Source: Escherichia coli (GTDB lineage: Bacteria; Pseudomonadota; Gammaproteobacteria; Enterobacterales; Enterobacteriaceae). From it: DNA of 64,000 nucleotides. A program made the position numbers and the translations under genes. The notes under the pieces are model-generated. The model was given only the letters and a program-made list of their open reading frames with translations, made no database searches and was not told the origin of the DNA. The stretch is from the NCBI RefSeq assembly GCF_045037415.1, contig NZ_CP173438.1; one strand, 5' to 3'. Below, piece by piece: positions 8,010-57,045 of this stretch; position 1 is the stretch's first letter, and each line of letters begins with the position of its first letter.

Positions 8010-8064
8010 CGCCAGAAAACCGACTTCAGGAAGGAATACGTCCAGAAACCACCTCTGTTCTGGC

Positions 8065-9650: not shown

Positions 9651-9686
9651 ACCGACGCCGGTGAGAAACTGGCGACGAGAACCAGG

Positions 9687-10259: not shown

Positions 10260-10297
10260 TCCATTGTGTTTTCCGCCCCTTGCGAGGCGGAACGGGG

Positions 10298-12125
<1,828 letters not shown>

Positions 12126-14089: not shown

Positions 14090-14215
14090 AATTGTCGGAT
14101 GCGCTCCGACCTACATCTGGCAACGGCTGTAGGTCGGATAAGATGCGCCAGCATCGCATCCGACAACAAGCGCCGGATGCGGCGTGAATGCCTTATCCGG
14201 CCTACATTCGGCAAG
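14090..14215. repeat. REP palindromic elements downstream of acs
   Basis: gtcggatgcgctccgacctac, ctgtaggtcggataag and gccggatgcggcgtgaatgccttatccggcctac motifs of the REP family. Confidence 0.7.
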
Positions 14216-35135: not shown

Positions 35136-35146
35136 CGTTGGTTTCC

Positions 35147-36646: not shown

Positions 36647-36686
36647 ATTCACCTCATTGTGAAAAATAAAAAACCTGCCTGGCTAT

Positions 36687-36702
36687 TGCAGGAGCTATGC
36701 CA
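36687..36702 (-). promoter_or_regulatory. Candidate sigma-54 (-24/-12) promoter for the transporter/Ldh_2 unit
   Basis: Minus strand reads TGGCAT-AGCTC-CTGCA (GG-N10-GC spacing) ~40 bp upstream of the permease start. Confidence 0.45.
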
Positions 36703-36815
36703 TCTTTAATTTTTTAATAATGCTTTGTTATTTAATGATTTTATTATTTATTCTTTTTATTTTGTGCGCGGTTTTCCGCACAGTAAATAAAAGGTGATTC
36801 TCTTACCACACAGAT

Positions 36816-36839
36816 AAAAAAAGGGAGCGATATGCTCCC
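36816..36839 (-). terminator. Rho-independent terminator downstream of the sucD-like gene
   Basis: Minus strand: hairpin gggagc-atatc-gctccc followed by an 8-T run. Confidence 0.6.
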
Positions 36840-36857
36840 TTGATATTCATTTATGGA

Positions 36858-37730
36858 TTACTTAATAACATTCCATAACGTTTCGCCAAGCAACGCCGGG
36901 TTTCTTGTCCATGCCATGCCTGCTTTATCGAACGCACGGAATTTATCCTCTGCACTGCCGCTACCGCCAGAAATAATGGCTCCGGCGTGTCCCATGCGTT
37001 TTCCTTTTGGTGCAGTAACACCGGCAATATAACCTACGACCGGTTTATTCATATCATGGCGAATAAATTCCGCGGCCCGTTCTTCCGCATTACCACCAAT
37101 TTCACCGATCATAATTACCGCGTCTGTTTGCGGATCATTTTCGAATAAACGCAGCGCATCAATAAAGTTAGTCCCCGGAACCGGATCGCCGCCAATACCA
37201 ATACAGGTGGATTGCCCAAGTCCCAGCGCCGTGGTTTGCGCTACAGCTTCGTAGGTTAATGTACCGGAGCGGGAAACAATCCCAATACGCCCTGGGCGGT
37301 GGATTTCACCAGGCATAATCCCGATTTTGCACTCACCCGGCGTGATAACTCCTGGGCAGTTTGGCCCAATCAGCCGCACATCCGGGTGGCAGTCAAGCAG
37401 CCGACGAACTTTCACCATATCCAGTGTCGGTACACCTTCAGTGATCACCACAACCAATTTGACGCCAGCTTCAATAGCCTCAACAACAGAATCCAGCACA
37501 AACGGTGCAGGCACATAAATCACGCTGGCATCGGCCTCAGTTTGTCGCATCGCATCTTTCATTGAATCAAAAACCGGGCGATCCAGATGCCGTTGCCCGC
37601 CCTTACCAGGCGTCACTCCACCCACAATCTGCGTGCCATACGCAATAGCCTGCTCTGTATGAAATGTGCCGTTTTTGCCGGTAATGCCCTGCACCAGTAC
37701 CCGCGTGTGTTTGTTGATCAAAACGCTCAT
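36858..37730 (-). CDS. Succinyl-CoA synthetase alpha subunit paralogue
   Basis: 290-aa [36 protein letters not shown] with CoA-binding and phosphohistidine-loop pattern of SucD. Confidence 0.88.
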
Positions 37731-37742
37731 CTTAACCTCCTG

Positions 37743-38912
37743 TTAATTCAGTAACGCAATGATGCGTTTCGCGGCATCATCCAGAGAATCGACGGCTTCC
37801 ACCGTCAGACCACTTTCTGCCAGTAACCGCTGCCCTTCGGCGGCGTTATTACCGGAGAGACGCACCACGACAGGCAGGGTGATGCTGGCCTCATTCAGAG
37901 CATGAATAATGGCTCTGGCGATCATGTCGCAACGGACAATCCCACCAAAAATATTAACCAGAATGGCTTTCACTTTGCTGTCGGAAACAATCAGCCGAAA
38001 GGCTTCACTGACGCGCTCCTGGGTTGCGCCACCGCCAACATCCAGGAAGTTTGCGGGTTGTTCACCGTATAGCTTGATGATGTCCATGGTTGCCATAGCC
38101 AGCCCTGCACCATTGACCATGCAGCCGATATTTCCGTCCAGCGAGACATAATTAAGATCAAGCTTCGCTGCCTGGCTTTCGCGTGGATCTTCCTGGGTTT
38201 CATCACGTAGCACCTGGAGTTCCGGGTGACGATACAGCGCGTTATCATCCAGCGATACTTTCGCGTCTGCACACATAAATTCGCCCGTTTCCCGCAACAC
38301 CAGAGGGTTAATTTCCAGCAGGGCAAAATCCAGTTCGTTAAAGGCTTTCCACGCCTGATTAACCAGGCGACTAAAGGCAGCAAATAGTCCGTGTTCCAGT
38401 TGCAGAACAGCAAACATTTCGCGGATATGGCAAGGCTGCACGCCTGTCAGTGGATCAATGCTGACACTGCTGATTTTCTCCGGTGTCTCATGGGCGACTT
38501 TTTCAATTTCCACACCACCTTCCGGGCTGACAATAAACGTGACCCGCTGGCTTTCACGATCCACCACCATGCCAAAATAGAGTTCCTGGCGTACCGGATA
38601 AATGTTTTCGCACAGTAAAATACTGCTGACATACTGTCCTTCTGGCCCGGTCTGATAAGTCACCAGTTGCGATCCCAACATTTGCTGTACAAAAGCCTGT
38701 GCTTCCGGCAGCTGCTTAAGCACTTTTACGCCGCCAGCTTTACCGCGCCCACCAGCATGTACCTGCGCTTTAAGTACCGCGCCTTTACTCGGGCAAGCAA
38801 TATGTTGCCAGGCATCTGCCAGTTGCGAAATCTGTTGGATAGCTATCTCTTTTGGACACGGCATCCCCATGCCAGCCAGTAACGATTTGGCCTGATACTC
38901 ATGTAAATTCAT
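37743..38912 (-). CDS. Succinyl-CoA synthetase beta subunit paralogue
   Basis: 389-aa ORF MNLHEYQAKSLLAGMGMP, ATP-grasp SucC-like. Confidence 0.88.
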   Translation of the reverse strand: MNLHEYQAKSLLAGMGMPCPKEIAIQQISQLADAWQHIACPSKGAVLKAQVHAGGRGKAGGVKVLKQLPEAQAFVQQMLGSQLVTYQTGPEGQYVSSILLCENIYPVRQELYFGMVVDRESQRVTFIVSPEGGVEIEKVAHETPEKISSVSIDPLTGVQPCHIREMFAVLQLEHGLFAAFSRLVNQAWKAFNELDFALLEINPLVLRETGEFMCADAKVSLDDNALYRHPELQVLRDETQEDPRESQAAKLDLNYVSLDGNIGCMVNGAGLAMATMDIIKLYGEQPANFLDVGGGATQERVSEAFRLIVSDSKVKAILVNIFGGIVRCDMIARAIIHALNEASITLPVVVRLSGNNAAEGQRLLAESGLTVEAVDSLDDAAKRIIALLN

Positions 38913-38933
38913 ATATTCCCTCAGTGGTGTGTG

Positions 38934-40352
38934 TTATCCGTGTAATGCTTTATTATTCAAGGCCATTGCTGCTTCGTGGATGACTTCGCTTAATGTCGGA
39001 TGCGCATGGATCGCACAGGCAATATCCTCGCCAGAGGCGCTAAAAGTCATCGCCAGCGCAATTTCATTAATCAGCTCCGATGCCTGCGGGCCAACAATCG
39101 CTCCGCCAAGTACGCGGTCAGTGTGTTTATCACTGTATAACGTGCAACGCCCACCTTCCTGGCCTAATGCTAAGGCGCGACCGTTACCGGCAAACAGAGA
39201 ATTTCCTTTGTTAAAGACTCTGCCAGCGGCTTTCAGTGAGGCCTCGTTTTCCCCTACCCACGCAACTTCCGGTTGGGTGTAAATCACCGAAGGGATCAGC
39301 GCAAAATTAATCGGCTCTACCACCAGTCCGGCAATTTGATCAGCCACCACTACACCTTCAGCCATCGCTTTATGCGCCAGCATCGGCCCTCGCACGACAT
39401 CACCAATTGCCCACAGCCCGGCTTTCCCGGTACGGCATAAGTTATCGACGGCAATACCGCCACGGTTATCGGCTTCAAGACCGAGTTGCACGAGATCGAC
39501 ACCAGAAAGTCGCGGTACACGTCCAATGGCAAGAATTAATTTATCGAAGCGGCTTTCTTCTCGCTTCTCACCCTGCCGCCAGCGCACATGCACACCGTCA
39601 TCCCGTTGTTCAATAGCCTCAATCTCTACTGCCAGTTGCATTTTCATCCCACTGGCAATCATTGCTTTACGGACTTCGTTCGACAGGCGAGCTTCCAGTG
39701 CAGGCAAGAACGTTGGCGCCATCTCCAGCAACGTGACGTCTGAACCAACCCGATTCCACACAGACCCCAGTTCAAGGCCAATCACGCCAGCGCCGATCAC
39801 ACCGAGACGCGGCGGCACTTCGCTCAATGCCAGGGCGCCACGATTGTCGAGGATCTGTTGATTATCAATGGTAACGCCAGGCAGCTGACGCGGCTGAGAA
39901 CCTGTTGCAATCACTACATTACGGGCGTGAAGGTGTTGATCGTTTACACGTAATTGCCAAATCTCATCCTGAGCACATTCTAACGTTGCGAGGCCGCACA
40001 GGTGCTTCACTTTATTTTTCTTAAACAGCAAGCTGATGCCCATTGTCAGGCGGCTTACTATGGCGTCTTTACGTTGAATCATCGCAGCTGCATTGAAAGA
40101 TACGCCGTCAACATTAACGCCATGAATGCTCGCCTCATGCTGCACTTGCGCGTACAGTTCGGAAGATTGCAGCAACGATTTTGACGGAATACAGCCGACA
40201 TTGAGACACGTACCGCCCGGCGAAGGTTCGCCCTGTGCATTAACACCATCATCAATACATACTACGGAAAGCCCATTCTGCGCAGCCCGCAGTGCCGCTA
40301 CGTAACCACCTGGCCCCCCCCCCATAACTGCCACATCAAAAATTGTACTCAT
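38934..40352 (-). CDS. Dihydrolipoyl dehydrogenase (E3) paralogue
   Basis: 472-aa ORF with FAD fold GGGPGGYVAA and redox-active disulfide GGTCLNVGCIPSK. Confidence 0.88.
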   Translation of the reverse strand: MSTIFDVAVMGGGPGGYVAALRAAQNGLSVVCIDDGVNAQGEPSPGGTCLNVGCIPSKSLLQSSELYAQVQHEASIHGVNVDGVSFNAAAMIQRKDAIVSRLTMGISLLFKKNKVKHLCGLATLECAQDEIWQLRVNDQHLHARNVVIATGSQPRQLPGVTIDNQQILDNRGALALSEVPPRLGVIGAGVIGLELGSVWNRVGSDVTLLEMAPTFLPALEARLSNEVRKAMIASGMKMQLAVEIEAIEQRDDGVHVRWRQGEKREESRFDKLILAIGRVPRLSGVDLVQLGLEADNRGGIAVDNLCRTGKAGLWAIGDVVRGPMLAHKAMAEGVVVADQIAGLVVEPINFALIPSVIYTQPEVAWVGENEASLKAAGRVFNKGNSLFAGNGRALALGQEGGRCTLYSDKHTDRVLGGAIVGPQASELINEIALAMTFSASGEDIACAIHAHPTLSEVIHEAAMALNNKALHG

Positions 40353-40363
40353 CGGCGCCCTCC

Positions 40364-41518
40364 TTAAAGATCCAGCAACAGTTGTTCCGGTGATTCCAGT
40401 AGCTCACGTATTGCCACCAATGTATGCACGGCTTCCTGACCATCGATAATGCGATGGTCATAGCTGAGAGCAAGGTACATCATGGGACGAATAACAACCT
40501 GACCGTTTTCTGCGACCGGGCGCGGCGTGATGGCATGCATCCCAAGAATGGCCGACTGCGGCGGGTTAATGATTGGCGTTGACATCATCGAACCAAAAGT
40601 ACCGCCGTTGGTGATAGAGAACGTGCCGCCCTGTAACGCCTCCAGCGGCAATTTGCCATTGCGTGCCTGTGTGGCGTATTCGGCAATTTGCCGTTCAATT
40701 TCCACCAAAGAGAGTGATTGCGCATTGCGTAACACAGGCACTACCAGGCCGCGGTTGCTGCTCACTGCAATGCCGATATCGCAATAATCACGCCAGATAA
40801 TCTCGTTGCCATCGACGCTGGCATTCACTACAGGGAAGCGCTCCAGCGCCCGGGTAACGGCCTTAACAAAGAAGGACATAAAGCCCAGCTTCACGCCGTG
40901 CTTCTCGGCAAAACGATCTTTCCAGCGGGCGCGTAAGTCCATCACGCTCTGCATGTTTACTTCGTTGAATGTGGTAAGAATGGCGTTATTTTGTTGGGAA
41001 GCCAGCAGACGCTCAGCAATTCGCTGACGTAAGCGCGACATCGGCTCACGACGTTCCTGACGAGCACCCGGTGTCAAGGGTTTAGCTGGCGCGATCTCCG
41101 CCACCCGTTCAGGCTGAATGGCTGGTGCAGGAGTAACGCGCTGCACATCCTCTTTCAGGATACGTCCATTTCTCCCGCTCCCCGCAACGTCAGCAAGTTC
41201 GACACCACTACGCTGTGCCTCCAGCCGTGCGGAAGGCATCGCCAGGGTTTCGGTGACTGGTGTGACGGTTTCTTCTATGACAGCTTGCGGCTTAAGATGC
41301 GCCAACAGTTGCGCGGACGTGACCGTGCTACCTTCGCTGACGATAATATTGCTTAACACGCCATCGTGCGGGGCCGGTATTTCCAGAATGACTTTATCGG
41401 TTTCCAGCTCGGCAATCACATCATCGCGTTTTACGTGCTCGCCTTCTTGTTTACACCAGGTTGTCAGCGTGCCTTCCGTGACAGATTCCGGTAATACAGG
41501 GACAGTAATTTCGATCAT
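40364..41518 (-). CDS. Dihydrolipoamide succinyltransferase (E2) paralogue
   Basis: 384-aa ORF with N-terminal lipoyl domain (ETDKV lipoyl-lysine motif) and C-terminal catalytic motif DHRIIDG. Confidence 0.88.
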
Positions 41519-41550
41519 AAAATGTTCTCCTTATTATTTTTGTGCGCCTT

Positions 41551-44295
41551 TCATGGCTGAATATCTGCAAACGCAGCAGCAAGAAATTCGTCGATTTGTT
41601 GTTTATGTACACGCCCATACCCTGTCGCTGGTGCTGCCGCTGCCGGGCGGCCTGCATACTGCCAGTAAGGAGTGTTAATTTTCAGTGCCGCCAGCTCATG
41701 ACGAATCTGCCGCCACGCGCCCTGGTTTTCTGGCTCTTCCTGCAACCAAATCCATTCGCAGCAGTTCGGCCAACTCGCCAGAACATCATTCAGTTCTGCG
41801 ACCGGGAACGGGTAGAGTTGCTCCAGGCGAACAATCGCTACCTCGTCTTCATGCTCACGCTGCTTACGGGCTTCCAGTACGTCGTAATAGACCTGGCCGC
41901 TACACAAAATAACGCGCTTAACTTTCTGGGACTGATGCAATTGCGGATCGGTGATTACCGGTTTATAAGCGTCATCAGTGAATTCACAAAGCTCGCTCAT
42001 CGCGCCTTTAAACCGAAGTAAACGCTTACTCATCATTATCACTAACGGTTTGCGCATTGGGCGTAATGCCTGACCGCGCAACAAATGGAACATTTGTGCT
42101 GACTCACTGGGCATCACCACCTGCATGTTGTTTTCTGCGCACAGTTGCAGCCAGCGCTCAGGACGTGCGGAAGAGTGCTCCGGCCCTTGTCCGTCATAGC
42201 CATGCGGCAGAAGAATGGTTAAACCGCTATAGCGATCCCACTTGGTTTCGCCAGACGAGATAAATTGGTCAATAGCAACCTGAGCGCCGTTGGCAAAGTC
42301 ACCAAACTGTGCTTCCCAAATAACCAGTTGCTGAGGCGCAGACGTTGAATAGCCATATTCAAAGGCTAAGAGCGCTTCTTCATTAAGCACCGAATCATAA
42401 ACATCGAAAGATGCCTGACCAGCGCGGATATGCTGTAACGGCAGATAACGACGGGCTTCCGTTTGATGATGTACCACTGCATGGCGATGACTGAACGTGC
42501 CACGCCCTGAGTCTTCACCAGAAAGACGCACACCAACACCCGCATCCACAAGCGATGCATAGGCCAGCATTTCAGCCATTCCCCAGTCTACTGGCTGAGT
42601 ACCTGCGGCCATATCCTGGCGTAACGCCAGTTGCCGTTTAATGGTAGGATGTGCGACCACATCGGGTGGCAGTGTAGAAATGATTTCACCATACGCTGCC
42701 AGCTTTTGCCGAGGCAATGCCGTAGATACCGGGGCGCTCCAGTGAGGGTTGGTCAACCCATACCAGTTAGCGCTAAAAGAGTGAATTGCAGGTTTGAGAG
42801 GCTGCGGTTCACGTTTCTGGCAGCTATCCAGCCAGTCGCGATAGCGTGCCGTCATCTCATCTTGTTGCGCCTGAGTTAACAGGCCGCGGCGGGCAAGAGA
42901 TTCACCATAACGGGCGAGCGTACCAGGGTGAGCATCCACTGCCTGATACATTTGTGGCTGGGTAAGACGTGGCTCATCGCTTTCGTTGTGTCCGTGCTTA
43001 CGGAAGCAGCAAATATCGATGATGATGTCACGCCGGAAGGTGTCTCGCCATTCGCACGCCAGTTCCATTACCTGGCAAACAGCGTCAACGTCATCGCCAT
43101 TAACGTGGATAATTGGGGCCGCTACCATTTTGGCAATATCGGTGCAGTACCGTGAAGAACGCATATCCTGCAAGCGGGAAGTGGTGAAGCCAATCTGATT
43201 GTTAATCACCAGATGTAGCGTACCGCCAGTGCCGTAGCCCTGAGTCTGCGATAAGTTAAACGTGGTTTGGTTGACGCCGAGGCCGCCCAACGCGGAATCC
43301 CCATGAATAAGTACGCCCACCACTTTTGCCTGACCATCCTCACCACGGCGTTCCTGCCTGGCTCGCACCTGGCCCAGCACCACCGGATTCACGATCTCCA
43401 GATGTGAGGGGTTATACGCCAGCGCCACATGCAGCGAACCGGCAGGTGTTTCCAGATTGCTGGAATACCCCATGTGGTATTTCACATCGCCTGAACCACT
43501 GCCGATCGTCTGCTTGCCTTCAAACTCAGCAAAAAGCTGTGCCGGGTCTTTATTCAACAGATTAACCAGAACATTAAGTCTTCCCCGGTGCGCCATGCCA
43601 ATGACCATTTCCTCCACACCTTGCGCACGCAGGCGTTTTGTCAGCGTATCGAGCGCCGGGATTGCACTTTCGCCCCCTTCCAGAGAAAACCGTTTCTGCC
43701 CAACATAACGGGTATGCAGATAACGCTCTAACGTCTCTGCCGCCATCAGTTTTTCAAAACGAGCAATACAGGTTTGGGCATCAGCTTGTGGCGCATTGCT
43801 GCTCTCAATCCGTGATAACAACCAGTTGATTTCTTCACGATTTTCCAGATGAGCAAGTTCATAAGCCTGGCTACTGGCCCAGGCTTGCTCCAGCAGGTTA
43901 AGCAGTTGCTTAAGTGGCATTTGCGTGGTGTGTGCGCCAAAGGTGACGCTAAACTCCTGCAACAAGTCTTCTTCGCTTAATCCCCAAAAACCAGGCTGGA
44001 GGGAGGGAACGTCAGCCGGGGGATTCAAACCAAGTGGATCAAGCTTTGCGCGCAGATGCCCCTGCGTGCGCCAGGCATTGATCAGTTGTATTACCGCAGC
44101 CTGTTTTTTTAAGGTCGCACCGCTGATATTGTTATCACCGGATACGCTTTGGACAGTCAGTTCAGGTGAAAGAAAAAAACGCCGCCAGTCTTCCGGGAGT
44201 TGTTCCGGCGTACGCAACCAGGTCTGGTAGTACTCTTCAAGCCAGGTCGCGTTATCTCCACTAAGCAGCGTGCCGGGCGAGGTCATGTTCTCCAT
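41551..44295 (-). CDS. 2-Oxoglutarate dehydrogenase E1 component paralogue
   Basis: Long ORF with E1o/TPP-binding similarity; start placed at ATG 44295 (MENMTSPG, SD AGGAG 6 nt upstream) rather than the ORF-track start 44418. Confidence 0.85.
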   Translation of the reverse strand: MENMTSPGTLLSGDNATWLEEYYQTWLRTPEQLPEDWRRFFLSPELTVQSVSGDNNISGATLKKQAAVIQLINAWRTQGHLRAKLDPLGLNPPADVPSLQPGFWGLSEEDLLQEFSVTFGAHTTQMPLKQLLNLLEQAWASSQAYELAHLENREEINWLLSRIESSNAPQADAQTCIARFEKLMAAETLERYLHTRYVGQKRFSLEGGESAIPALDTLTKRLRAQGVEEMVIGMAHRGRLNVLVNLLNKDPAQLFAEFEGKQTIGSGSGDVKYHMGYSSNLETPAGSLHVALAYNPSHLEIVNPVVLGQVRARQERRGEDGQAKVVGVLIHGDSALGGLGVNQTTFNLSQTQGYGTGGTLHLVINNQIGFTTSRLQDMRSSRYCTDIAKMVAAPIIHVNGDDVDAVCQVMELACEWRDTFRRDIIIDICCFRKHGHNESDEPRLTQPQMYQAVDAHPGTLARYGESLARRGLLTQAQQDEMTARYRDWLDSCQKREPQPLKPAIHSFSANWYGLTNPHWSAPVSTALPRQKLAAYGEIISTLPPDVVAHPTIKRQLALRQDMAAGTQPVDWGMAEMLAYASLVDAGVGVRLSGEDSGRGTFSHRHAVVHHQTEARRYLPLQHIRAGQASFDVYDSVLNEEALLAFEYGYSTSAPQQLVIWEAQFGDFANGAQVAIDQFISSGETKWDRYSGLTILLPHGYDGQGPEHSSARPERWLQLCAENNMQVVMPSESAQMFHLLRGQALRPMRKPLVIMMSKRLLRFKGAMSELCEFTDDAYKPVITDPQLHQSQKVKRVILCSGQVYYDVLEARKQREHEDEVAIVRLEQLYPFPVAELNDVLASWPNCCEWIWLQEEPENQGAWRQIRHELAALKINTPYWQYAGRPAAAAPATGYGRVHKQQIDEFLAAAFADIQP

Positions 44296-45751: not shown

Positions 45752-46780
45752 TCAGTCGGGAAGTTGGCGAAGAATTTGCTCCACTCGCTCTTGCAGTGGC
45801 CCCGAAACCGAAAGATAAGGAATGTTCCTGCGCGACAATTCCTGTTCATACCACACCTGTTGCCGTGCGCGAAATACCTCTCCTTGCCGGGTGCCATCCT
45901 GCACGAAGGGAAATTCTGCGCCGCAAAGCACTACCAGAGAGTATTCCCGCTCCGCCAGTTGGTGAAGTTCTTGCGGAGCATGACCATATTGATCAAGGGC
46001 ATAGAATAAGGTCGTGAGTGGCGACGTGTCACATATAAGATAGTGATTAGCTTCTGCTTGTTGTTCCCGGCGTACCTGTTCGCAGGCGATATGCAACAAA
46101 TCATCCGCAGTTAAGATACCGTTTTTTTCTTCCCAATAGTCGCGGCCAAATTCAGCGACATACACCGTATCAAGCACGCCCGCCAGCGCTTTTGAAAGCG
46201 TGCTTTTACCGGTAGATTCGCCACCAAGCAGACAGATACGGCGAACGAAACTGTAATAAACATCATTCGCCAACATGTAGCGATAGCGGTGAACATCGGA
46301 ACGAATAAGCGTTCCCGAAGGCGCTTCATCGCCAACTGGGCGCGCCATTCGAACGTGTTCAACGGGTTGGGCAAAACGCCGCGCCAGCACGTTAGCAAAG
46401 CCATCGCCATAGTCTTCTGCAGTAAATACAGCGTGTGGGCGGCAACGTAATATCTGCAAGCATAGCGTCGCCACATAATGACGGTGGATGTCGGCATCAG
46501 CATTGTTATGCGGGATAGCAGGTAAGTTATAACGCGCAACAAGCTCTGGCGTCAGTACCAAAAACGTCGCTTGCGGGAAGCGCACTTGCAGCCACGTCAG
46601 GCGCTTTTCAGGTTCACAGTCAGGCATTTCCGGCACGGAATAACTGATGATGAACAGTTCTTCACATTGCGCCAGTGCGGTATTGATCAACTTTTCATGA
46701 CCACAATGCAAAGGCGCGAATTTACCAACCACCAGACCCGTTGCAAAAGGCTTCATGATGTTTGCAACTCTTTGCGCCAT
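45752..46780 (-). CDS. NadR-like bifunctional NMN adenylyltransferase / ribosylnicotinamide kinase (no N-terminal HTH)
   Basis: Nucleotidyltransferase motif GKFAPLHCGHEKLI near N-terminus and P-loop GGESTGKSTL in the C-terminal half; alternative coupled start at 46756 (ATGA overlap with pnuC-like stop). Confidence 0.7.
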   Translation of the reverse strand: MAQRVANIMKPFATGLVVGKFAPLHCGHEKLINTALAQCEELFIISYSVPEMPDCEPEKRLTWLQVRFPQATFLVLTPELVARYNLPAIPHNNADADIHRHYVATLCLQILRCRPHAVFTAEDYGDGFANVLARRFAQPVEHVRMARPVGDEAPSGTLIRSDVHRYRYMLANDVYYSFVRRICLLGGESTGKSTLSKALAGVLDTVYVAEFGRDYWEEKNGILTADDLLHIACEQVRREQQAEANHYLICDTSPLTTLFYALDQYGHAPQELHQLAEREYSLVVLCGAEFPFVQDGTRQGEVFRARQQVWYEQELSRRNIPYLSVSGPLQERVEQILRQLPD

Positions 46781-47310
46781 TGATACAAACCATACCAGGC
46801 GTTAATCCAGAACAGGAAATATAAGCCAGCGGTCAGGTTTAAACCGCGCGTCATATACAGTGGCACCGCCAGGGTATTCACCGCTAACCAGACGTACCAG
46901 TTTTCGATACGTCTTCCCATCAACATGAATTGTGCCAGAACGCTGAAGGTCAAAATCAACGAATCCAGCCAGGGTGCCCAAGCATTGGTAAAGGTGTGGA
47001 GTAAAAAGCCGTAACCGCCTGCCACGACGACAGCACAGAGCAACAAAAGGAAAAAGTGACTGGCTTGCGTTCGGCGCACCGGCAAGATGTCGCCACCCTG
47101 ACCTTTCAGCCAGTGGATCCAGCCAGTGATGCTGGTCACGATGAAGAATAACTGGAGCGTAACGTCGGCATAGAGTTGCACGGACCAAAAAACCCAGCCG
47201 TACAATATGCTGCCAATTATGCCGATCCACCATGTATGCACATTGTTTCTGGCAGCCAGCCAGACGGAAACCGCGTATGCCAGACACGCGGCGATTTCTG
47301 AATAAGACAT
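46753..47310 (-). CDS. PnuC-family nicotinamide riboside transporter
   Basis: 185-aa polytopic ORF with tryptophan-rich PnuC-like segments; directly upstream of and overlapping the NadR-like gene. Confidence 0.7.
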   Translation of the reverse strand: MSYSEIAACLAYAVSVWLAARNNVHTWWIGIIGSILYGWVFWSVQLYADVTLQLFFIVTSITGWIHWLKGQGGDILPVRRTQASHFFLLLLCAVVVAGGYGFLLHTFTNAWAPWLDSLILTFSVLAQFMLMGRRIENWYVWLAVNTLAVPLYMTRGLNLTAGLYFLFWINAWYGLYQWRKELQTS

Positions 47311-49880: not shown

Positions 49881-49952
49881 AACGAATGGTGTTACCTGCT
49901 GTTGAATGGGGGACAAGAGAGTATAGCGAGAAACAGTTTCTCGCTACAGCAT

Positions 49953-50987
49953 TTAACGCCCCCGCTTTCCGGTGGAAGCGCGAATTTGCAGGGTCGGGCG
50001 ATAGATGTAATGGCTGAGCGGTGCGTCTGGTTGCGCAATACGCCGTAAAATTTGCTGCGCCGCCTGTTTCCCCAGAGCCAATGGTTCTACCGCAATTGTG
50101 GTTAACGGCGGGTTACTGTAAGCACAAGCCGCCACGCCATCATTACCAATCAACGAAATATCTTCCCCGGCAAATAATCCTCTTTCGCCTAGTGCCGACT
50201 CCGCGCCAAAAGCCATTAAATCGTTATAACAAATCACCGCTGTGGGTGGCGAAGGCATATCCAACAGCTGTTGCATCAACTGGTAGCCGTTGGCCTGAGT
50301 CGGTTCAGCACGCAGCGAAAAAGCATCAGTACTCCACGGCTGTAAACCATGGTGATTCATCGCCTCAAGGTATCCCTGATAACGCATATGGTGCGTAAGA
50401 CCACCAATAAACACGATATCTCTGTGCCCTTGTTGAATGAGATATTCCGTCGCTTCCCGTACACCTGCGTGGCTGTCCACGCCAACGTAATCGACGGGCA
50501 ATTGTTGCCAATCCAGAGGGCGCATCGTGATTAATAAGGGTGTGGAACTGTTGGCATAACGCTGTAAATCGGCTTCTGAGGTACTGTTCACTGGACAGAG
50601 GACAATGCCCGCGACGTGGTGTTCCAGCAAGGTATCAAGCACCTGTTTTTGCCGGTCACTACGCTGGGAGGTATTGGACATCACGGTGATAAAACCGTGC
50701 TCCGCCAGCGTCATCTCAAGACCCATAGTAAATTCAGCGAAGAAAGGATTTATCAAATCGTCAATGACTACGCCGATAGTTAGCGATTTTTGCGAACGCA
50801 GATTGGCAGCAAAACGGTTATAGACATAGCCTAATTGTTCAATGGCTTGCTGGACTTTTTGTTGCGTCTCTTTTTTGATAAGTGAACTGTCGTTGAGAAC
50901 CAGCGATACAGTCGATTTCGAAACGCCAGCCGCACGCGCAACATCGGTTAATGTTACCCGCTTTCTTCCTGTATCCGACTTCGCCAT
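49953..50987 (-). CDS. LacI-family transcriptional regulator
   Basis: Start at MAKSDTGRKRVTLTDVARAAGVSKSTVSLVLN (HTH), then periplasmic-binding-protein-like sugar-binding fold; divergent from the adjacent operon. Confidence 0.85.
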   Translation of the reverse strand: MAKSDTGRKRVTLTDVARAAGVSKSTVSLVLNDSSLIKKETQQKVQQAIEQLGYVYNRFAANLRSQKSLTIGVVIDDLINPFFAEFTMGLEMTLAEHGFITVMSNTSQRSDRQKQVLDTLLEHHVAGIVLCPVNSTSEADLQRYANSSTPLLITMRPLDWQQLPVDYVGVDSHAGVREATEYLIQQGHRDIVFIGGLTHHMRYQGYLEAMNHHGLQPWSTDAFSLRAEPTQANGYQLMQQLLDMPSPPTAVICYNDLMAFGAESALGERGLFAGEDISLIGNDGVAACAYSNPPLTTIAVEPLALGKQAAQQILRRIAQPDAPLSHYIYRPTLQIRASTGKRGR

Positions 50988-51242
50988 GCCTGCTCCAAAC
51001 CCCCATAAGATCAAGGCAATTACTTTATCATAATCTCCTTTTACTCATGCGATCCGTTAACGCAAGGGATCGCAGGAGATCGTCGTTTCGATCACAGATT
51101 CGCACTTCCCTTGTTGTGTTTTTTACACCCTAATCGTACAAATTACGCATAAATTAGATCGTTCCAATTAATTTATGAAAATTATCATATTGTTTTAAAT
51201 GTATATTTTTAATTATTTTTATATCGAAACAAGGAAATTATT

Positions 51243-52814
51243 ATGTGCTCTGTACGCACGATCACTGCACCGGAAGCTGCAGATTTGATTGTTGATGGCG
51301 CAGTTGTCACCGTCTCCTCCTCCAGTGGAATGGGGTGTCCGGATGCGGTGCTGGCAGCAATAGGTGAACGCTTTCAACGTGCCGGACATCCGCAAAACAT
51401 CACCTCCATCCACCCTATCGCCGCTGGTGATATGTATGGCGTAAAAGGCATCGATCATCTGGCGCAACCGGGCTTACTGGCAAAAGTGATCGCTGGCTCC
51501 TACCCCTCCGGTCCATCATCAATGACGCCTCCGTTAATCTGGCAAATGATCAATGACAACGCGATCCCCGCCTGGAATCTGCCTTCCGGGATCTTATTTG
51601 ATATGCACCGGGAAGCGGCGGCTCATCGTCCTGGCGTGCTGACACAAACAGGCATGGATACCTATGTGGATCCCCTGTTGCAGGGCGGTGCAATGAATGA
51701 AAAAGCGGCGCAACAATCTCTGGTTGAACGTGTTCGATTTGCTAACGACGACTGGCTGTTTTTCCCCAGTATCGTGCCGCAGGTGGCGATCATTCGCGCT
51801 ACCACTGCCGATGAACGCGGCAACCTGACTTATGAACATGAAGGGGCTTATCTGGGGCCACTGGAACAGGCTACTGCCGTTCGCAATAATGGTGGCATCA
51901 TAATTGCGCAAGTAAAACGACAGGTTGCCGCCGGAAGTCTGAAACCAAAAGAGGTGCGTATTCCGGGTGTACTGGTGGATTACATCGTGATTGCGCCGGA
52001 ACAAACACAAACGACACAAACGCAATATGAACCTGCCATTTCCGGCGAAATCAGTCGTCCGCTGTCAGCCTTTCGTTATATGGAACATGGCCCGGCGCGA
52101 GTTATTGCCCAGCGAGTCGCGCAAGAACTACAAAGTGGAGATGCGGTAAATATTGGCTTTGGTATTTCTGCCAACGTACCACGCATTTTACTGGAACAAG
52201 GTCGCCACGGTGACGTCACCTGGCTGCTGGAACAGGGCGCGATTGGCGGAGTTCCACTGCTGGAATTTCAGTTCGGTTGTGCCTCTAATGCAGAAGCATT
52301 TTTGCCCTCTCCCCAGCAGTTCACCTATTTCCAGGGTGGTGGTTTTGATCTCACTCTGATGTCGTTTTTACAAATCGGCGCAGATGGCTCAGTGAACGTC
52401 TCACATCTCCCCGCTCGTCCACATGTCACTGCCGGATGCGGTGGATTTATTGATATCACCTCACATGCGAAACGCATTATTTTCTCTGGCTTTTTCAATG
52501 CCGGTGCCCAACTGCAACTGGAAGAGGGTCAGCTGCGTATCATTAAAGAAGGCAAAGCCAAAAAACTGGTACAGGACGTCGCCCACGTGACGTTCTCCGG
52601 CAAACGCGCAATAAGACTCGGGCAACAAGTACAGTACATTACTGAACGCTGCGTTCTGGAATTAACCCCAGACGGGCTACTGGTCACAGAAATTGCCCCA
52701 GGTATTGATCCTGAACGCGACATTCTCGCCCAAAGCGATGCCCCACTCCGTCTGGCAGACGATCTCAAACTAATGAATCCCCTCTATTTTCAACAAGGAA
52801 GTCACCATGAATAA
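51243..52814 (+). CDS. CoA-transferase-like protein (acyl-CoA:carboxylate CoA-transferase or acetyl-CoA hydrolase/transferase superfamily)
   Basis: 523-aa soluble ORF with two-domain organisation resembling fused CoA transferases; family assignment by eye only; SD AAGGAA upstream. Confidence 0.55.
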   Translation: MCSVRTITAPEAADLIVDGAVVTVSSSSGMGCPDAVLAAIGERFQRAGHPQNITSIHPIAAGDMYGVKGIDHLAQPGLLAKVIAGSYPSGPSSMTPPLIWQMINDNAIPAWNLPSGILFDMHREAAAHRPGVLTQTGMDTYVDPLLQGGAMNEKAAQQSLVERVRFANDDWLFFPSIVPQVAIIRATTADERGNLTYEHEGAYLGPLEQATAVRNNGGIIIAQVKRQVAAGSLKPKEVRIPGVLVDYIVIAPEQTQTTQTQYEPAISGEISRPLSAFRYMEHGPARVIAQRVAQELQSGDAVNIGFGISANVPRILLEQGRHGDVTWLLEQGAIGGVPLLEFQFGCASNAEAFLPSPQQFTYFQGGGFDLTLMSFLQIGADGSVNVSHLPARPHVTAGCGGFIDITSHAKRIIFSGFFNAGAQLQLEEGQLRIIKEGKAKKLVQDVAHVTFSGKRAIRLGQQVQYITERCVLELTPDGLLVTEIAPGIDPERDILAQSDAPLRLADDLKLMNPLYFQQGSHHE

Positions 52815-53586
52815 CGGCACCATTGACCTCCAGCGCAACGGTTTCATTGCCACTTTGGTGATTAATCGCCCGGCGAAACTCAACGCATTAACCCCAGAGA
52901 TGCTCGAACAACTGCTGGCGCATTGCCACACGTTGGAAACTGATTCGGAGATCCGCGTAGTACTGCTGACCAGTGCCAGTGAAAAAGCGTTTTGTGTCGG
53001 CGCGGATATTCATCGCTGGACCTCTCTTTCTGCACTCGATATGTGGCGCAACTGGATCCGCCGCGGTCATCAGGCATTTGATGCTCTGGCACAACTGCCA
53101 CAGCCCGTAATCGCCCTGTTGCACGGCCTGGCTTATGGCGGTGGTCTGGAACTGGCTGCTACCGCCGATATCCGTATTTGTAGCGCCGAAGCACAAATGG
53201 CACTACCAGAAACCGGGCTGGCGACAGTGCCTGGCTGGTCAGGAACGCAGCGGCTGACGGCACTGCTTGGGCGCTCACTGGTGAAAGAACTGGTATTTAC
53301 CGGTGAACCACTGGATGCACAGCGGGCACTGTCCTGCGGGCTGGTGAATCGCGTTGTCGCCAGGGAGGCGTTACACGACGCCGGACTGCAACTGGCACAA
53401 CGTATCGCCCAGCGTGCTCCCGTTGCAGTGCAGATCGCCAAGCAGGTTATTGATGCCGGAGAAGGTATTGCTGTGGCCTCGACGCTTGAAGCACTGGCTG
53501 GCGCTTTTTCCGCCACGACTGAAGATGCTCATGAAGGCAGTCAGGCATTTACTGAGAAGCGTCAACCGCACTTTCAGGCACGCTGA
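52807..53586 (+). CDS. Enoyl-CoA hydratase/isomerase (crotonase-fold) family enzyme
   Basis: 259-aa ORF with crotonase patterns (LNALTPEM, oxyanion-hole region FCVGADI, GLAYGGGLELA); 8-bp overlap with upstream gene. Confidence 0.8.
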   Translation: MNNGTIDLQRNGFIATLVINRPAKLNALTPEMLEQLLAHCHTLETDSEIRVVLLTSASEKAFCVGADIHRWTSLSALDMWRNWIRRGHQAFDALAQLPQPVIALLHGLAYGGGLELAATADIRICSAEAQMALPETGLATVPGWSGTQRLTALLGRSLVKELVFTGEPLDAQRALSCGLVNRVVAREALHDAGLQLAQRIAQRAPVAVQIAKQVIDAGEGIAVASTLEALAGAFSATTEDAHEGSQAFTEKRQPHFQAR

Positions 53587-53612
53587 TCGCCTCTTACAAG
53601 GAAAGAAAGATA

Positions 53613-54893
53613 ATGAATATGACAACCTCTGTTCCCCAAACGCCTTCTTTATTTCGGCGAATAATGACAAAACTCGCGGCCTTTGCACCTGGCATCTTTC
53701 TTATTGGCTACAGCATCGGAACAGGCAGCATCACCACTATGGCTAAAGCAGGTGCTAACTATGGTGTCTCGCTCATGTGGGCCGTGGCGCTTTCTTGCAT
53801 TGTTACCTGGTTTTTAATCCGTATTTATGGTCGTTATGCTTCCGTCACTGGTGAACGCGCGTTGACTGCATTTCGTCGCCATATCCATCCCGGCGTTGCG
53901 ATGTTGTTTCTGATCGGGTTAACCGTTGCCGTGAGCGGTTCCATTATGGGGGTAATGGGTATTCTGGCGGATGTAATGGCAACATGGTCCACGACCTGGT
54001 TTAGTGGCGGTATCTCAGCTCTCGCCTGGGCTATCGCGATGGTCATTATGATTAACGTGATGCTCTGGACCAACAGCAACGCCGGGTTCGACAAAATCCT
54101 CTCCGCGCTGGTTGGCATTATGGGGCTGGCGTTTGTGATTAATTTTTTCATTATGATGCCGCCGGTCGCAGATCTGCTGGCCGGATTTATTCCGTCTGTT
54201 CCCGATCCTGTCGCTGGCGATAACAGTACGCCATTTCTGATAATTTCTGGCATGGTGGGTACCACCGTAGCACCAGCAATGTTTCTTATGCGCACGACCC
54301 TGGTAAAAAGTAATGGTTGGGGTGTGGACAATTTGCCTCATCAAAATCGTGATGCCATTGTCAGTGCAGGAATGATGTTCATCATCAGTGCGGCGGTGAT
54401 GGCTGCGGCTGCGGGTACGTTGTACCAAACTGGCACAGGTTTAAATAATGCCTCGCAAATGGTCATTATTCTCGAACCTATTGCTGGCTCAGCTGCCGTG
54501 GGGCTCTTTGTTATTGGTATTGTTGCAGCCGGGCTTTCCAGCCAGTTCCCAAATTTGCTGTTAACGCCCTGGCTGCTGGCTGACTGGCGTGATACCAGCA
54601 ACGAAGTTAGCCCAGGTTACCGTATCCTGATGACGGTTATGTCTCTGCTTTGTCTGGTTGTGCCGCTGTTCCACGCACGCCCGGTATTGGTGATGATTGC
54701 CAGCCAGGCCTTTAACGCCATTATTCTGCCGCTGACTGTTTTATGTATGTTCTGGCTGGCGAACAAGCCTTCGTTAATGGGCAAATATCGTTGCTCACGC
54801 TGGGAAAACGTCATGTTTATTGCCATAAGCGTATTTACGCTAATCATGGGCTATATGGCAATGAGCGGCTTAATCGAAAGTCTGATGAAATAG
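53613..54893 (+). CDS. NRAMP-fold membrane transporter, divergent (canonical metal-binding motif not conserved)
   Basis: 426-aa polytopic ORF whose N-terminal helices align in pattern with MntH, but the DPGN motif position reads IGTGS. Confidence 0.55.
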   Translation: MNMTTSVPQTPSLFRRIMTKLAAFAPGIFLIGYSIGTGSITTMAKAGANYGVSLMWAVALSCIVTWFLIRIYGRYASVTGERALTAFRRHIHPGVAMLFLIGLTVAVSGSIMGVMGILADVMATWSTTWFSGGISALAWAIAMVIMINVMLWTNSNAGFDKILSALVGIMGLAFVINFFIMMPPVADLLAGFIPSVPDPVAGDNSTPFLIISGMVGTTVAPAMFLMRTTLVKSNGWGVDNLPHQNRDAIVSAGMMFIISAAVMAAAAGTLYQTGTGLNNASQMVIILEPIAGSAAVGLFVIGIVAAGLSSQFPNLLLTPWLLADWRDTSNEVSPGYRILMTVMSLLCLVVPLFHARPVLVMIASQAFNAIILPLTVLCMFWLANKPSLMGKYRCSRWENVMFIAISVFTLIMGYMAMSGLIESLMK

Positions 54894-54903
54894 GTGGGAC
54901 GCA

Positions 54904-56940
54904 ATGATTGACGAAACGCTAACGGCGCTCACTGATATCAAAATGCCCCATTACGCACCGCTGGCTCAAGCCAGCGGTAGTATCGACCTTAACGGTACCA
55001 TTTTACCAGAGTACTGCTGCAACACGCTGGTTCTGGGCAGTGGCGCGGCAGGATGGCGAGCTGCCGTCGAGCTGAAACGGCAAAATGTCGATGTAATGGT
55101 CGCCTCCAGCAAAGCCTTCTGGGGCACTTCCGCCTGTTCTGGTTCCGATAAACAAACGCTTCACACCGCGAATACGCGTGCAAATGGTGACCATTTTCTG
55201 ACATTAAGTAACACCCTGGCGGCAGGTGGTGCGATGGATCATGACACCGCATATGTTGAGGCGGTCGGATCGGTGAACACCTGTGAAGTACTGAAATATC
55301 TGGGTCTGGATCTGCCTGAAGATCTCTTTGGCGCAACGTTGCGTTATCAAACCGATCACGATGAATTTGGCCGTGCCACTAGCTGCGGTCCTCGAACATC
55401 GCGCCTGATGGTGAAGGTGCTGGCCCAGGAGGCAATGCGCCTTAATATTCCTCTTTGCGATCACACAACGGCGATTCATATCCTGACCAGTGGTGAAGGG
55501 GAAAATCGACGAGTCGTGGGGGTGATCGCCATCGATAAAGCCTGTCGGGATAATCCCTGGCGAATGGTCGTGATTCGCTGCCAGCATCTGGTTTTAGCCA
55601 CGGGCGGACCAGGTGAACTTTATCGTGACAGTGTTTATCCGGTGAACTGTTTTAGTGCGTTGGGCATGGCACTGGAAGCAGGTATAACTCTGGTTAATCT
55701 TACGGAAAGTCAGTTTGGTATCGGTACACCGCGCAGCCAGTTTCCGTGGAATCTTTCCGGTACTTACATGCAGGCGATGCCGCGCATCTATTCGCAGGAC
55801 CACTCCGGGCGTCAGTATAATTTTCTGGCAGCTTATTACCCCACGACTCGTATGCTGGCCTCCGCAATATTTCGTAAAGGTTACCAGTGGCCGTTTCACG
55901 CGGAACGAATGCTGGAATATGGCTCCAGCCTGCTGGATGTCGCAGTTTATGAAGAGACTCAAAAAGGGCGCGATGTTTTTCTTGATTTTCTACGGGAACC
56001 AGAACCCGCAGCGGACGGAACGTCATTCAACCTGCAAGAACTGGATGATGATGTCATCGACTATCTGCAACAAAATCACGCCCTGTTGGCACAACCGCTG
56101 GCGAGATTAACACAGATGAATCCTCTGGCTATTCGTTTGTATCAGATGCACGGTCATGATCTCACAGCCTCACCGCTCAAGTTTACGCTAAATAATCAAC
56201 ATCTTAATGGCGGAATTGAAGTTGATATTTGGGGACGTACATCGCTAACTGGTTGTTATGCTGCCGGAGAAAATGCCGGAACACATGGTGTCACGCGCCC
56301 AGGTGGAGCAGCGCTCAATGCCGGGCAAGTTTTCGCCCGCCGCTGTGCATTACATATTGCTCATCAGAAAAGCCAGGACCGGCCTCTCGAGAGGCAACAA
56401 ATTCTCAGTACGATTAATGAGGCGCAACAGTACCTGAATCAGGGGCTGCTACGTGACGACGTGCGAGAAACGATACAAAATACCATGAGCCACCATGCCG
56501 CAATTTTGTGTCATACACAGGGGATCAACACTGCCGCGCAAACCCTGGCAACACTTTGTGAAGATATTCGCCGGGAAGGTATTCAATGCGATGAAAACAG
56601 CCTGGCACAATCTTTCCAGTGGCGGCAAAGTGCGCAACTGGCGCTGGCTGTACTGCGTTCTTTACAATGTTATGTCGAAAACGGTGGTGGGAGTCGTGGT
56701 GCCAGGGCTATCTATGATGGCGAAGCCGGTATTGCACCGCAAACACCAGGTGGGCCACTCCTGGCCTGGCGTTTTCGGCCAGAAAATCAGGATGCCAGGC
56801 AATATATGATTTGTGTTTGTCGGGAAGCTAATGATTACCAAACCTGGACTCGCCCGTGCCGTGAACGGGGCGTATTAACGCTAACCAACTTTGAGCGCCA
56901 GTGGCAAAACTGGATTGCGGCGACGCCGTTTCAATACTGA
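54904..56940 (+). CDS. FAD-dependent oxidoreductase, fumarate reductase / succinate dehydrogenase flavoprotein-like
   Basis: N-terminal dinucleotide fold LVLGSGAAGWRAA and C-terminal GCYAAGENAGTHGVTRPGGAALNAG motif typical of the FRD/SDH/aspartate-oxidase flavoprotein family; 678 aa. Confidence 0.7.
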   Translation: MIDETLTALTDIKMPHYAPLAQASGSIDLNGTILPEYCCNTLVLGSGAAGWRAAVELKRQNVDVMVASSKAFWGTSACSGSDKQTLHTANTRANGDHFLTLSNTLAAGGAMDHDTAYVEAVGSVNTCEVLKYLGLDLPEDLFGATLRYQTDHDEFGRATSCGPRTSRLMVKVLAQEAMRLNIPLCDHTTAIHILTSGEGENRRVVGVIAIDKACRDNPWRMVVIRCQHLVLATGGPGELYRDSVYPVNCFSALGMALEAGITLVNLTESQFGIGTPRSQFPWNLSGTYMQAMPRIYSQDHSGRQYNFLAAYYPTTRMLASAIFRKGYQWPFHAERMLEYGSSLLDVAVYEETQKGRDVFLDFLREPEPAADGTSFNLQELDDDVIDYLQQNHALLAQPLARLTQMNPLAIRLYQMHGHDLTASPLKFTLNNQHLNGGIEVDIWGRTSLTGCYAAGENAGTHGVTRPGGAALNAGQVFARRCALHIAHQKSQDRPLERQQILSTINEAQQYLNQGLLRDDVRETIQNTMSHHAAILCHTQGINTAAQTLATLCEDIRREGIQCDENSLAQSFQWRQSAQLALAVLRSLQCYVENGGGSRGARAIYDGEAGIAPQTPGGPLLAWRFRPENQDARQYMICVCREANDYQTWTRPCRERGVLTLTNFERQWQNWIAATPFQY

Positions 56941-57045
56941 TCAGAGATATTCCGGGTTGTGACCGCAGCCCGGAAAAAATCCCCGCGCGGCCTGGCGACT
57001 ACTGTTAGGCTTAAAACAGATATGTCGCTCAGTAAAGGAGTTTAA

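Follow-up and report, generated by a model that had tools for sequence, protein, structure and literature searches.

What can a flavoprotein of the fumarate reductase/succinate dehydrogenase (FRD/SDH) type do when no iron-sulfur or membrane-anchor subunit is encoded beside it? This question is raised by a gene at positions 54904-56940 (plus strand) of a 64,000-nucleotide stretch of Escherichia coli DNA (contig NZ_CP173438.1, hereafter the window), whose 678-amino-acid product a sequence-only reading had described as a stand-alone enzyme of this type and of open substrate. What is new here is a familiar fold with a rebuilt active site, found in a large uncharacterised family and encoded in a conserved module that is itself uncharacterised. 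As for the class of substrate that this module would handle, several independent observations indicate a carbohydrate-type organic acid.

The open reading frame is genuine, with a good ribosome-binding site upstream, and RefSeq annotates it identically (WP_000564684.1), under the uninformative name 'FAD-dependent oxidoreductase'. Its sole Pfam domain is FAD_binding_2 (PF00890, E = 2.5e-18, residues 42-471), and the protein has all four domains of the SdhA/FrdA/NadB fold (FAD-binding, capping, helical and C-terminal), which confirms the FRD/SDH-type assignment and differs from the two-domain architecture of KstD-type 3-ketosteroid dehydrogenases, where the SdhA helical and C-terminal domains are missing. 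Scanning the sequence revealed no CxxC, CxxCH, iron-sulfur or haem pattern and no hydrophobic segment, and no cysteine is conserved throughout the family alignment; Pfam and the motif scan likewise gave no fused cytochrome or iron-sulfur domain. The flavoprotein is a soluble, cytoplasmic, four-domain protein of SdhA/NadB fold with an intact FAD site. The predicted lack of partner genes is also borne out: profile matches and RefSeq names identify no iron-sulfur (SdhB/FrdB) or anchor subunit gene among its neighbours in the island described below, and none is labelled or present among the recurrent neighbour families in 83 related loci (80 from one-per-species genomes and three contigs, with neighbours labelled by homology).

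Identity to named relatives of the superfamily is just 15-21% (15-19% for SdhA/FrdA, 20% for NadB), and all curated NCBIfam models score well under their cut-offs: the top model is TfrA (118 bits vs 718), and other values are those of the NadB models PRK07804 (97 vs 639) and TIGR00551 (91.3 vs 452.75) and of the complex II models TIGR01812 (SdhA/FrdA, 87.8 vs 567), TIGR01816 (60 vs 727) and TIGR01176 (44 vs 933). The flavoprotein therefore belongs to the superfamily and to none of its named families. Its best PDB sequence match is NadB, with an E-value of only 2.6e-11. Because neither a fused domain nor orthology to NadB or another characterised enzyme was detected, the sequence-only reading was right to leave the substrate open.

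The active site was mapped by profile-profile alignment between K-12 FrdA, SdhA and NadB on one side and the family on the other (hhalign probability 99.9%); a cross-check came from HMMER alignments to PDB chains, and shared motifs served as anchors. The dinucleotide-binding motif (GSGAAG, of the GxGxxG type) is retained, as is the C-terminal GGGSRGA, the counterpart of ESRGAH. Also retained are H433 in the motif NQH.NGG and R465 in HGVTRPGG, the equivalents of FrdA H355 and R390; the first pairing comes from the HMMER alignment to the QH motif of Wolinella FrdA, hhalign being off by one at Q432, and both Q432 and H433 are invariant (60/60 sequences). H433 and R465, invariant in the family, thus correspond by alignment to the His/Arg pair with which fumarate reductases anchor the substrate carboxylate beside the flavin. 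Lost, by contrast, is the histidine for covalent FAD attachment (FrdA H44, motif RSHT), the local sequence reading GTSACSG with C78 (HMMER) or a gap (hhalign) at that position. FrdA H232-P233-T234 are deleted, 'QFHPT' having become 'QF-GIG' with an invariant G272; T244 pairs with N283, E245 and R248 lie inside a four-residue deletion, and R287 pairs with S341, one half of an invariant Ser-Ser pair, in a segment anchored by a shared helix-ending KG. Seven polar residues specific to the family (D82, D151, K325, S342, D345, R401 and E456) are invariant in 60/60 sequences. Only two of the seven canonical substrate and catalytic residues, those equivalent to H355 and R390, are therefore kept, and the FRD/SDH-type resemblance holds for the fold, the FAD site and this pair while failing for the other five, which are deleted or replaced. 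We also considered a covalent 8-alpha-S-cysteinyl FAD formed through C78 and rejected it as a family feature, because the aligned residue is mostly Asn (38/60 relatives, with Cys in 16/60).

These replacements weigh on the most closely related known enzymes. In the alignment, H232, R287, H355 and R390 are invariant across FrdA, SdhA and NadB, and the flavoprotein keeps the last two only; the NadB counterparts of H232 and R287 are H244 and R290, and FrdA R287 presumably corresponds to Fcc3 R402. [quoted passage not shown] Two of the three motif I residues are present in the flavoprotein (H433 and R465), and motifs II (H232, T244) and III (E245, R248, R287) are absent. As most canonical catalytic residues are gone, fumarate/succinate and aspartate chemistry are both unlikely; that a carboxylate or an acyl carbonyl is held beside the flavin is plausible.

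A soluble fumarate reductase or succinate dehydrogenase would agree with the fold and domain order, which fit FrdA/SdhA (1kf6, 1nek; Foldseek E about 1e-30, TM-score 0.66-0.68), with the shared motifs (GxGxxG, NQH..GG, HG..R..G and GGGSRGA) and with the retained H355 and R390 equivalents. However, the flavoprotein differs from SdhA/FrdA in lacking the covalent-FAD histidine, the HPT motif, the E245/R248/R287 relay and the iron-sulfur and anchor partners, and in having a conserved N-terminal extension of about 40 residues and a catabolic-operon setting; its NCBIfam scores are 5-20 times under the cut-offs, and no iron-sulfur, haem, FMN_bind or old yellow enzyme (OYE) module accompanies it. We give such an activity next to no credence. 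An amino-acid oxidase resembling L-aspartate oxidase, the nearest match in the PDB, is very improbable too: besides the low TIGR00551 score and the 20% identity to NadB (1chu/1knr), the H232 position is deleted and R287 has become Ser, E. coli has its nadB elsewhere, and the genomic context is unrelated, amino-acid or NAD-biosynthesis genes neighbouring the flavoprotein in no locus. A further comparison is with the soluble 2-enoate reductases that have a FAD_binding_2 domain (Shewanella Fcc3, Klebsiella NADH:fumarate reductase FRD, Vibrio NADH:acrylate reductase ARD and urocanate reductase UrdA), cytoplasmic or periplasmic enzymes which are independent of complex II and anchor a carboxylate by the His/Arg pair of motif I; unlike them, the window flavoprotein carries no fused multihaem, FMN_bind or OYE-like module.

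The protein belongs to a family of about 690 residues, recognisable by the signatures FPWNLSGT and KGYQWPFH and devoid of a curated name. Like its relatives it has a length of about 680-700 residues, the conserved N-terminal extension and all the invariant motifs (GSDKQT, TDHD, QFG, WNLSGTY, KGYQWP, SS..D, NQH.NGG, HGV.RPGG and GGGSRG), their invariance or near-invariance being judged on 26 close and 60 diverse sequences. A word-indexed search returned at least 7988 homologues (E<1e-5), and an exhaustive search of 50%-identity representatives gave 2798 clusters at E<1e-3, of which 378 passed E<1e-30. Homologues at 52-56% identity are strikingly uniform in length (about 690 residues) and come from Enterobacteriaceae, Rhizobiales, Rhodobacteraceae, betaproteobacteria, Lentisphaerae and soil metagenomes. 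Structural neighbours in AFDB50 (TM-scores 0.84-0.98) include strict anaerobes (Enterocloster, Halanaerobium, Treponema, Coriobacterium and Victivallis) and one Asgard archaeon, and are named only 'FAD-binding protein' or 'oxidoreductase'; the best matches bear no functional name.

Distant members give a hint of how electrons may reach this family. In P0143 (38% identical; positions 8001-11255 of its contig), an N-terminal OYE-like domain (Oxidored_FMN) is fused to the family domain, and in a metagenomic locus (L085, 2121-5485) a separate OYE gene, 41% identical to the OYE domain of P0143, directly follows the flavoprotein gene, with a glycoside hydrolase family 4 (GH4) gene adjoining. AP_endonuc_2, short-chain dehydrogenase/reductase (SDR) or GH4 genes are adjacent in these two loci, which tie the family to carbohydrates again; three distant members stood on short contigs with little context. 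The fusion and the adjacency are a Rosetta-stone hint of NAD(P)H-linked electron input. In Klebsiella FRD and Vibrio ARD, the module that oxidises NADH is a fused OYE-like domain (bioRxiv 10.1101/2022.01.20.477176); in the present family such a fusion is seen only in distant P0143, and since this domain is of the NADH-oxidising type in characterised enoate reductases, we lean slightly to reduction as the direction of the flavoprotein reaction. The same loci speak against a redox-neutral flavoenzyme, that is an isomerase, hydratase or lyase using its FAD transiently and needing no electron partner, because they imply a net input of electrons. Such an enzyme would account for the lack of any conserved electron-transfer partner in the 83 proteobacterial loci, for the spread of the family over strict aerobes and strict anaerobes and for the missing canonical redox residues, but none is found among the structural neighbours of SdhA/NadB type and we regard it as improbable.

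The genomic setting brings the substrate closer. The flavoprotein gene is the last gene of an accessory island standing in place of the dnaB-qorA intergenic region of K-12, with the following features:

49897-57045: accessory island, 7149 bp, delimited by blastn against K-12
49953-51014, minus strand: LacI-family regulator (NCBIfam, RefSeq), divergent from the operon; RefSeq start at about 50987
51015-51242, no strand: divergent control region, 228 bp, AT-rich
51243-52814, plus strand: family I CoA-transferase of the fused alpha/beta type, like YdiF and propionate CoA-transferase (PDB match YdiF 2ahu, E = 3e-100)
52807-53586, plus strand: crotonase (short-chain enoyl-CoA hydratase/dehydratase), overlapping the CoA-transferase gene by 8 bp
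53613-54893, plus strand: Nramp-fold transporter without the metal-binding residues, as aligned to an Nramp structure
54904-56940, plus strand: the flavoprotein, 678 residues, SdhA/NadB fold
56941-57045, plus strand: gap to qorA, 105 bp, the island DNA abutting the qorA start codon

Homology to K-12 runs up to 49896, which lies 16 nt upstream of the dnaB ATG, and restarts at 57046 with the ATG of qorA, so that the island replaces all but 16 nt of an intergenic region that spans 82 bp in K-12. Of 5426 complete E. coli genomes, 825 (15%) carry the full island. With gaps of -8, 26 and 10 bp, the coenzyme A (CoA)-transferase, crotonase, transporter and flavoprotein genes appear to form a tight four-gene operon from which the LacI-type regulator gene diverges. 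The flavoprotein is thus stand-alone in the sense that it has no iron-sulfur or anchor partner, and not in the sense of an isolated gene, being co-operonic with two other enzymes and a transporter under a LacI-type regulator. Downstream, the terminator-less gap before qorA described from the sequence is real, no terminator-like site being found in the 105 bp between the flavoprotein stop codon and qorA. This adjacency is incidental, because qorA holds the same place in K-12, where the island is absent. QorA was considered as an electron partner and rejected: it is encoded by a core gene, found at the same K-12 position without the island, and was not seen in the related loci examined. We conclude that qorA is not part of the system.

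The best NCBIfam matches of the regulator are MalI, RbsR, CytR and PurR (188-216 bits, all under cut-off), and in alphaproteobacteria its homologues (33-41% identity) have the same trio of genes, for CoA-transferase, crotonase and flavoprotein, as neighbours. The control region holds an inverted repeat at 51044-51078 (15-nt arms, 5-nt spacer), a candidate operator, and promoter-like sites were detected on the minus strand at 51483-51454 and 51212-51184. The CoA-transferase scores 331 bits against the NCBIfam model FadX, below its cut-off, and its E330 aligns with E333 of YdiF, which we take to be the catalytic glutamate. In the crotonase, E115 in GGGLEL and E135 in LPETG occupy what are presumably the sites of the two catalytic glutamates of such enzymes. 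Judged by these residues, both enzymes look catalytically competent. The best PDB matches of the crotonase are the 3-hydroxypropionyl-CoA dehydratase 5zai (E = 2.6e-55) and the short-chain enoyl-CoA hydratase 5z7r. This resemblance, the Pct-like CoA-transferase, and a glucose-methanol-choline (GMC) oxidoreductase of the choline-dehydrogenase type with an aldehyde dehydrogenase as neighbours in Agrobacterium make 3-hydroxypropionate, acrylate or propionate candidate substrates, but such C3 acids fit poorly with LacI-type regulation and sugar-type transporters.

The transporter is more telling. Aligned to an Nramp structure, its DPGN motif has become GTGS and its MPH motif APA, and GTGS is kept in all 116 of the 116 full-length homologues examined (50-64% identical). 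In each of the three genomes sampled, homologues lie in carbohydrate clusters: a SusC-SusD-Nramp-like-phosphomannose isomerase (PMI) cluster in Formosa, an Nramp-like-UxuA cluster in Sphingorhabdus, and a UxuA-Nramp-like-epimerase-UxuB-type dehydrogenase cluster in Litorimonas. Judging from motifs and context, the protein is probably an importer of a sugar or sugar acid, and its RefSeq name, 'Nramp family divalent metal transporter', is probably misleading.

The neighbourhoods of related flavoproteins show which of these genes travel together. The two closest relatives (78% and 67% identical) keep the order LacI < CoA-transferase > crotonase > transporter > flavoprotein, and in one of these operons a major facilitator superfamily (MFS) transporter of the MHS family, ShiA/TcuC-like, replaces the Nramp-like protein. 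A quinate/shikimate-type substrate, prompted by this transporter, found no further support and was set aside. Across the 83 loci, the CoA-transferase (58-67% identical) and/or the crotonase (41-46%) neighbour the flavoprotein in 21, and both do so in 18; the hosts of the 21 are Bradyrhizobium, Rhizobium, Devosia, Rhodobacteraceae, betaproteobacteria and other Escherichia. Three settings recur. In plant-associated Enterobacteriaceae and Yersinia, the order is TetR < SDR > GFO_IDH_MocA > AP_endonuc_2 > anion-type MFS > flavoprotein; in other Escherichia and betaproteobacteria, it is TetR < SDR > AP_endonuc_2 > crotonase > CoA-transferase > flavoprotein, with a tripartite ATP-independent periplasmic (TRAP) or MFS transporter; in alphaproteobacteria, a LacI regulator and a CUT1-type ATP-binding cassette (ABC) or TRAP transporter accompany either the CoA-transferase and crotonase or two GMC oxidoreductases, often near a 2-keto-3-deoxygluconate (KDG) kinase, an LgdA-like dehydrogenase, an L-rhamnonate dehydratase or an aldehyde dehydrogenase. 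A choline-dehydrogenase-like GMC oxidoreductase stands beside the flavoprotein orthologue in 35 of the 83 loci, these 35 being alphaproteobacterial. In a neighbour-joining tree, contexts of the CoA type and of the GMC type are interleaved, and the window protein forms a branch of its own with its two close relatives. In alpha-, beta- and gammaproteobacteria, the regulator, CoA-transferase, crotonase and flavoprotein genes thus recur as one coherent and mobile module whose transporter can be exchanged; the flavoprotein also functions where CoA genes are missing from the locus.

Two of these neighbourhoods deserve separate mention. In Agrobacterium tumefaciens B6 (L077, 6400-9896) and in one other locus (L047), this GMC oxidoreductase is paired with a second, divergent one that has a pyranose-oxidase-like C-terminus, and a sugar-type ABC transporter accompanies them; with the flavoprotein orthologue this makes three flavoproteins in a row. 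In E. coli DETEC-P61 (L097, 4148-13932), a paralogous island lies between ytfB and rplI in the order TetR < SDR > AP_endonuc_2 > crotonase > CoA-transferase > flavoprotein > TRAP transporter; its flavoprotein is 52% identical to that of the window and its CoA-transferase gene is frameshifted in this strain. It is also seen in L046, L030 and L084, and in 3125 of 5426 complete E. coli genomes (58%). The TRAP binding protein of this island is closest to 4n15, 4n91 and 4mij, which bind D-glucuronate and, in one case, D-galacturonate as well (PMC7660916).

Taken together, these contexts suggest an organic acid of the carbohydrate type. The regulator belongs to the LacI family; the metal-ligand-free Nramp-like subfamily lies beside uxuA, uxuB, PMI and SusCD genes; the transporters that substitute for it (MHS or anion-type MFS, TRAP and CUT1 ABC) are typical carriers of organic anions or sugars; the TRAP protein of the paralogous island is nearest to binders of glucuronate and galacturonate; and the KDG kinase, L-rhamnonate dehydratase and LgdA-like dehydrogenase neighbours in alphaproteobacteria link the flavoprotein to sugar acids. 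We tentatively favour, at somewhat less than an even chance, a model in which the Nramp-fold protein would import an organic acid, the YdiF-like CoA-transferase would form its CoA thioester, the crotonase would add or remove water across C2-C3, and the flavoprotein would saturate or desaturate the alpha,beta carbon-carbon bond of the acid or of its CoA ester, H433 and R465 holding a carboxyl or carbonyl group beside the flavin. By analogy with the carnitine pathway, the three enzymes and the transporter could be self-sufficient.

Several observations weigh against this model. Many orthologues (52-55% identical) lie in clusters without CoA-transferase or crotonase, either the TetR-SDR-GFO-AP_endonuc_2-MFS type or the ABC-transporter type with two GMC oxidoreductases, and in the tree the contexts of the GMC type are interleaved with those of the CoA type, which argues that the flavoprotein itself may act on something other than a CoA ester. 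Moreover, the arginine that serves as catalytic proton donor in all characterised enoate reductases of the superfamily is missing, so that the proposed chemistry on a carbon-carbon double bond stands as an analogy; the island holds no gene for an electron donor or acceptor; no characterised member of the family was found; and the residue mapping in the capping domain derives from profile alignment, not from superposed coordinates. The main alternative is that the flavoprotein acts on a free, non-CoA carbohydrate, for instance by forming or reducing the carbon-carbon double bond in an enone of a keto-sugar or sugar acid; the CoA-transferase and crotonase would then only handle a small acid that is set free further downstream. 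About half of the orthologous loci are without CoA genes and carry instead GFO_IDH_MocA proteins (LgdA/IolG-like), AP_endonuc_2, KduD-like SDR proteins, or two GMC proteins with a sugar ABC transporter and KDG kinase, and the distant members adjoin GH4, AP_endonuc_2 and SDR genes, as would be expected for such a substrate. On the other hand, the E. coli island contains no sugar-modifying enzyme, its remaining enzymes being the CoA-transferase and the crotonase, which are nearest to short-chain acyl-CoA enzymes, and the CoA genes could sit elsewhere in the genome where the locus lacks them. We consider action on a free carbohydrate unlikely, if well worth keeping in mind. Returning to the CoA-dependent model, its boldest form, in which the island encodes an undescribed CoA-dependent route for a sugar-type acid with a flavoenzyme of rebuilt active site and an Nramp-fold importer of organic compounds devoid of metal ligands, must be called doubtful as a whole.

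Known pathways offer partial parallels. The carnitine pathway (CaiT/CaiB/CaiD/CaiA) combines a transporter, a CoA-transferase, a crotonase-type (de)hydratase and an enoyl/acyl flavoprotein, and can convert a hydroxy-acid alone; there the CoA-transferase, CaiB, belongs to family III, and CaiA is an acyl-CoA dehydrogenase dependent on FixABCX. The likeness would be one of operon logic only, as the island has instead a family I YdiF-like CoA-transferase, a flavoprotein of SdhA/NadB fold and no genes like those of an electron-transfer flavoprotein. TcuA is a FAD_binding_2 tricarballylate dehydrogenase of about 470 residues, encoded beside the MHS-family TcuC, that desaturates an imported acid and depends on the membrane iron-sulfur protein TcuB. 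The MFS transporter encoded in the closest related operon matches the TcuC model with 181 bits, but no TcuB-like partner is encoded in the island. We also compared the deoxyribonate acyl-CoA pathway of Klebsiella michiganensis, which joins a sugar acid to CoA chemistry, and rejected it, because its enzymes are a CoA synthetase, a hydroxyacyl-CoA dehydrogenase and a thiolase, with no flavoprotein among them.

Accessory catabolic islands with orphan flavoproteins are common. In the SdhA/FrdA/NadB superfamily, a few active-site residues set the chemistry, and here a large family keeps the scaffold and the carboxylate anchor with its catalytic machinery replaced. Under the boldest form of the model, this would make the flavoprotein the first member open to study of a large and broad family with a new reaction specificity, spanning proteobacteria, Firmicutes, Lentisphaerae and an Asgard archaeon. 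The transporter may be the most novel element, as Nramp-fold transporters might prove able to carry organic substrates; in that boldest form it would be the first Nramp that is not a metal transporter. Two paralogous islands with a flavoprotein of this kind are carried by E. coli, in which tests would be easiest. Once the substrate is defined, thousands of entries called 'FAD-binding protein' would gain an annotation, and strain-specific metabolism of gut or urinary E. coli would be explained.

Both islands are probably present in the uropathogen CFT073. From the numbering and the position beside an alpha-ketoglutarate island, the island of the window is probably c5020-c5025 of that strain, and the paralogous island is probably c5298-c5303, listed only as '3-ketoacid metabolism'; no study of c5298-c5303 and no functional study of the window island's genes was found in the literature, nor any on clusters that combine Gfo/MocA, xylose-isomerase-like and fumarate-reductase proteins. 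A 2010 synteny survey lists c5020-c5025 under the same heading, '3-ketoacid metabolism' (PMC2831201), and a proteome study (PMC9045377) has a single mention of c5025, which it classes as related to transcription.

Some further features of the window were noted. Only 16 nt upstream of the essential gene dnaB are common to K-12, and because the island (here 49881-49952 and 56941-57045) replaces the whole divergent dnaB-qorA promoter region, both genes must be expressed from island-derived sequence or by read-through; a hairpin with a 12-bp stem follows the LacI gene (49922-49948). Between 45900 and 61100, the window differs from E. coli strain SK1144 by a single base. Elsewhere, the otherwise nearly identical SK1144 carries a 1.4-kb insertion of IS1397 (IS3 family) between acs and yjcH, which the window lacks (at about 14187-14189). 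Between aphA and tyrB (30902-44295) lies another accessory cluster, encoding a sensor kinase, a sigma-54 regulator, an Ldh-family oxidoreductase and a DASS transporter, together with second copies of sucD, sucC, lpdA, odhB and the gene for 2-oxoglutarate dehydrogenase E1. This cluster corresponds to c5030-c5041 of CFT073, listed as '2-oxoglutarate metabolism', and is probably the KguS/KguR alpha-ketoglutarate island. Its lpdA-like gene (38934-40352) is intact in the window and annotated as frameshifted in SK1144. Finally, genes for a pnuC-type nicotinamide riboside transporter and an AAA-family ATPase lie between tyrB and alr (45752-47310, minus strand); tyrB and alr are adjacent in K-12, so that this segment would be another small accessory insertion.

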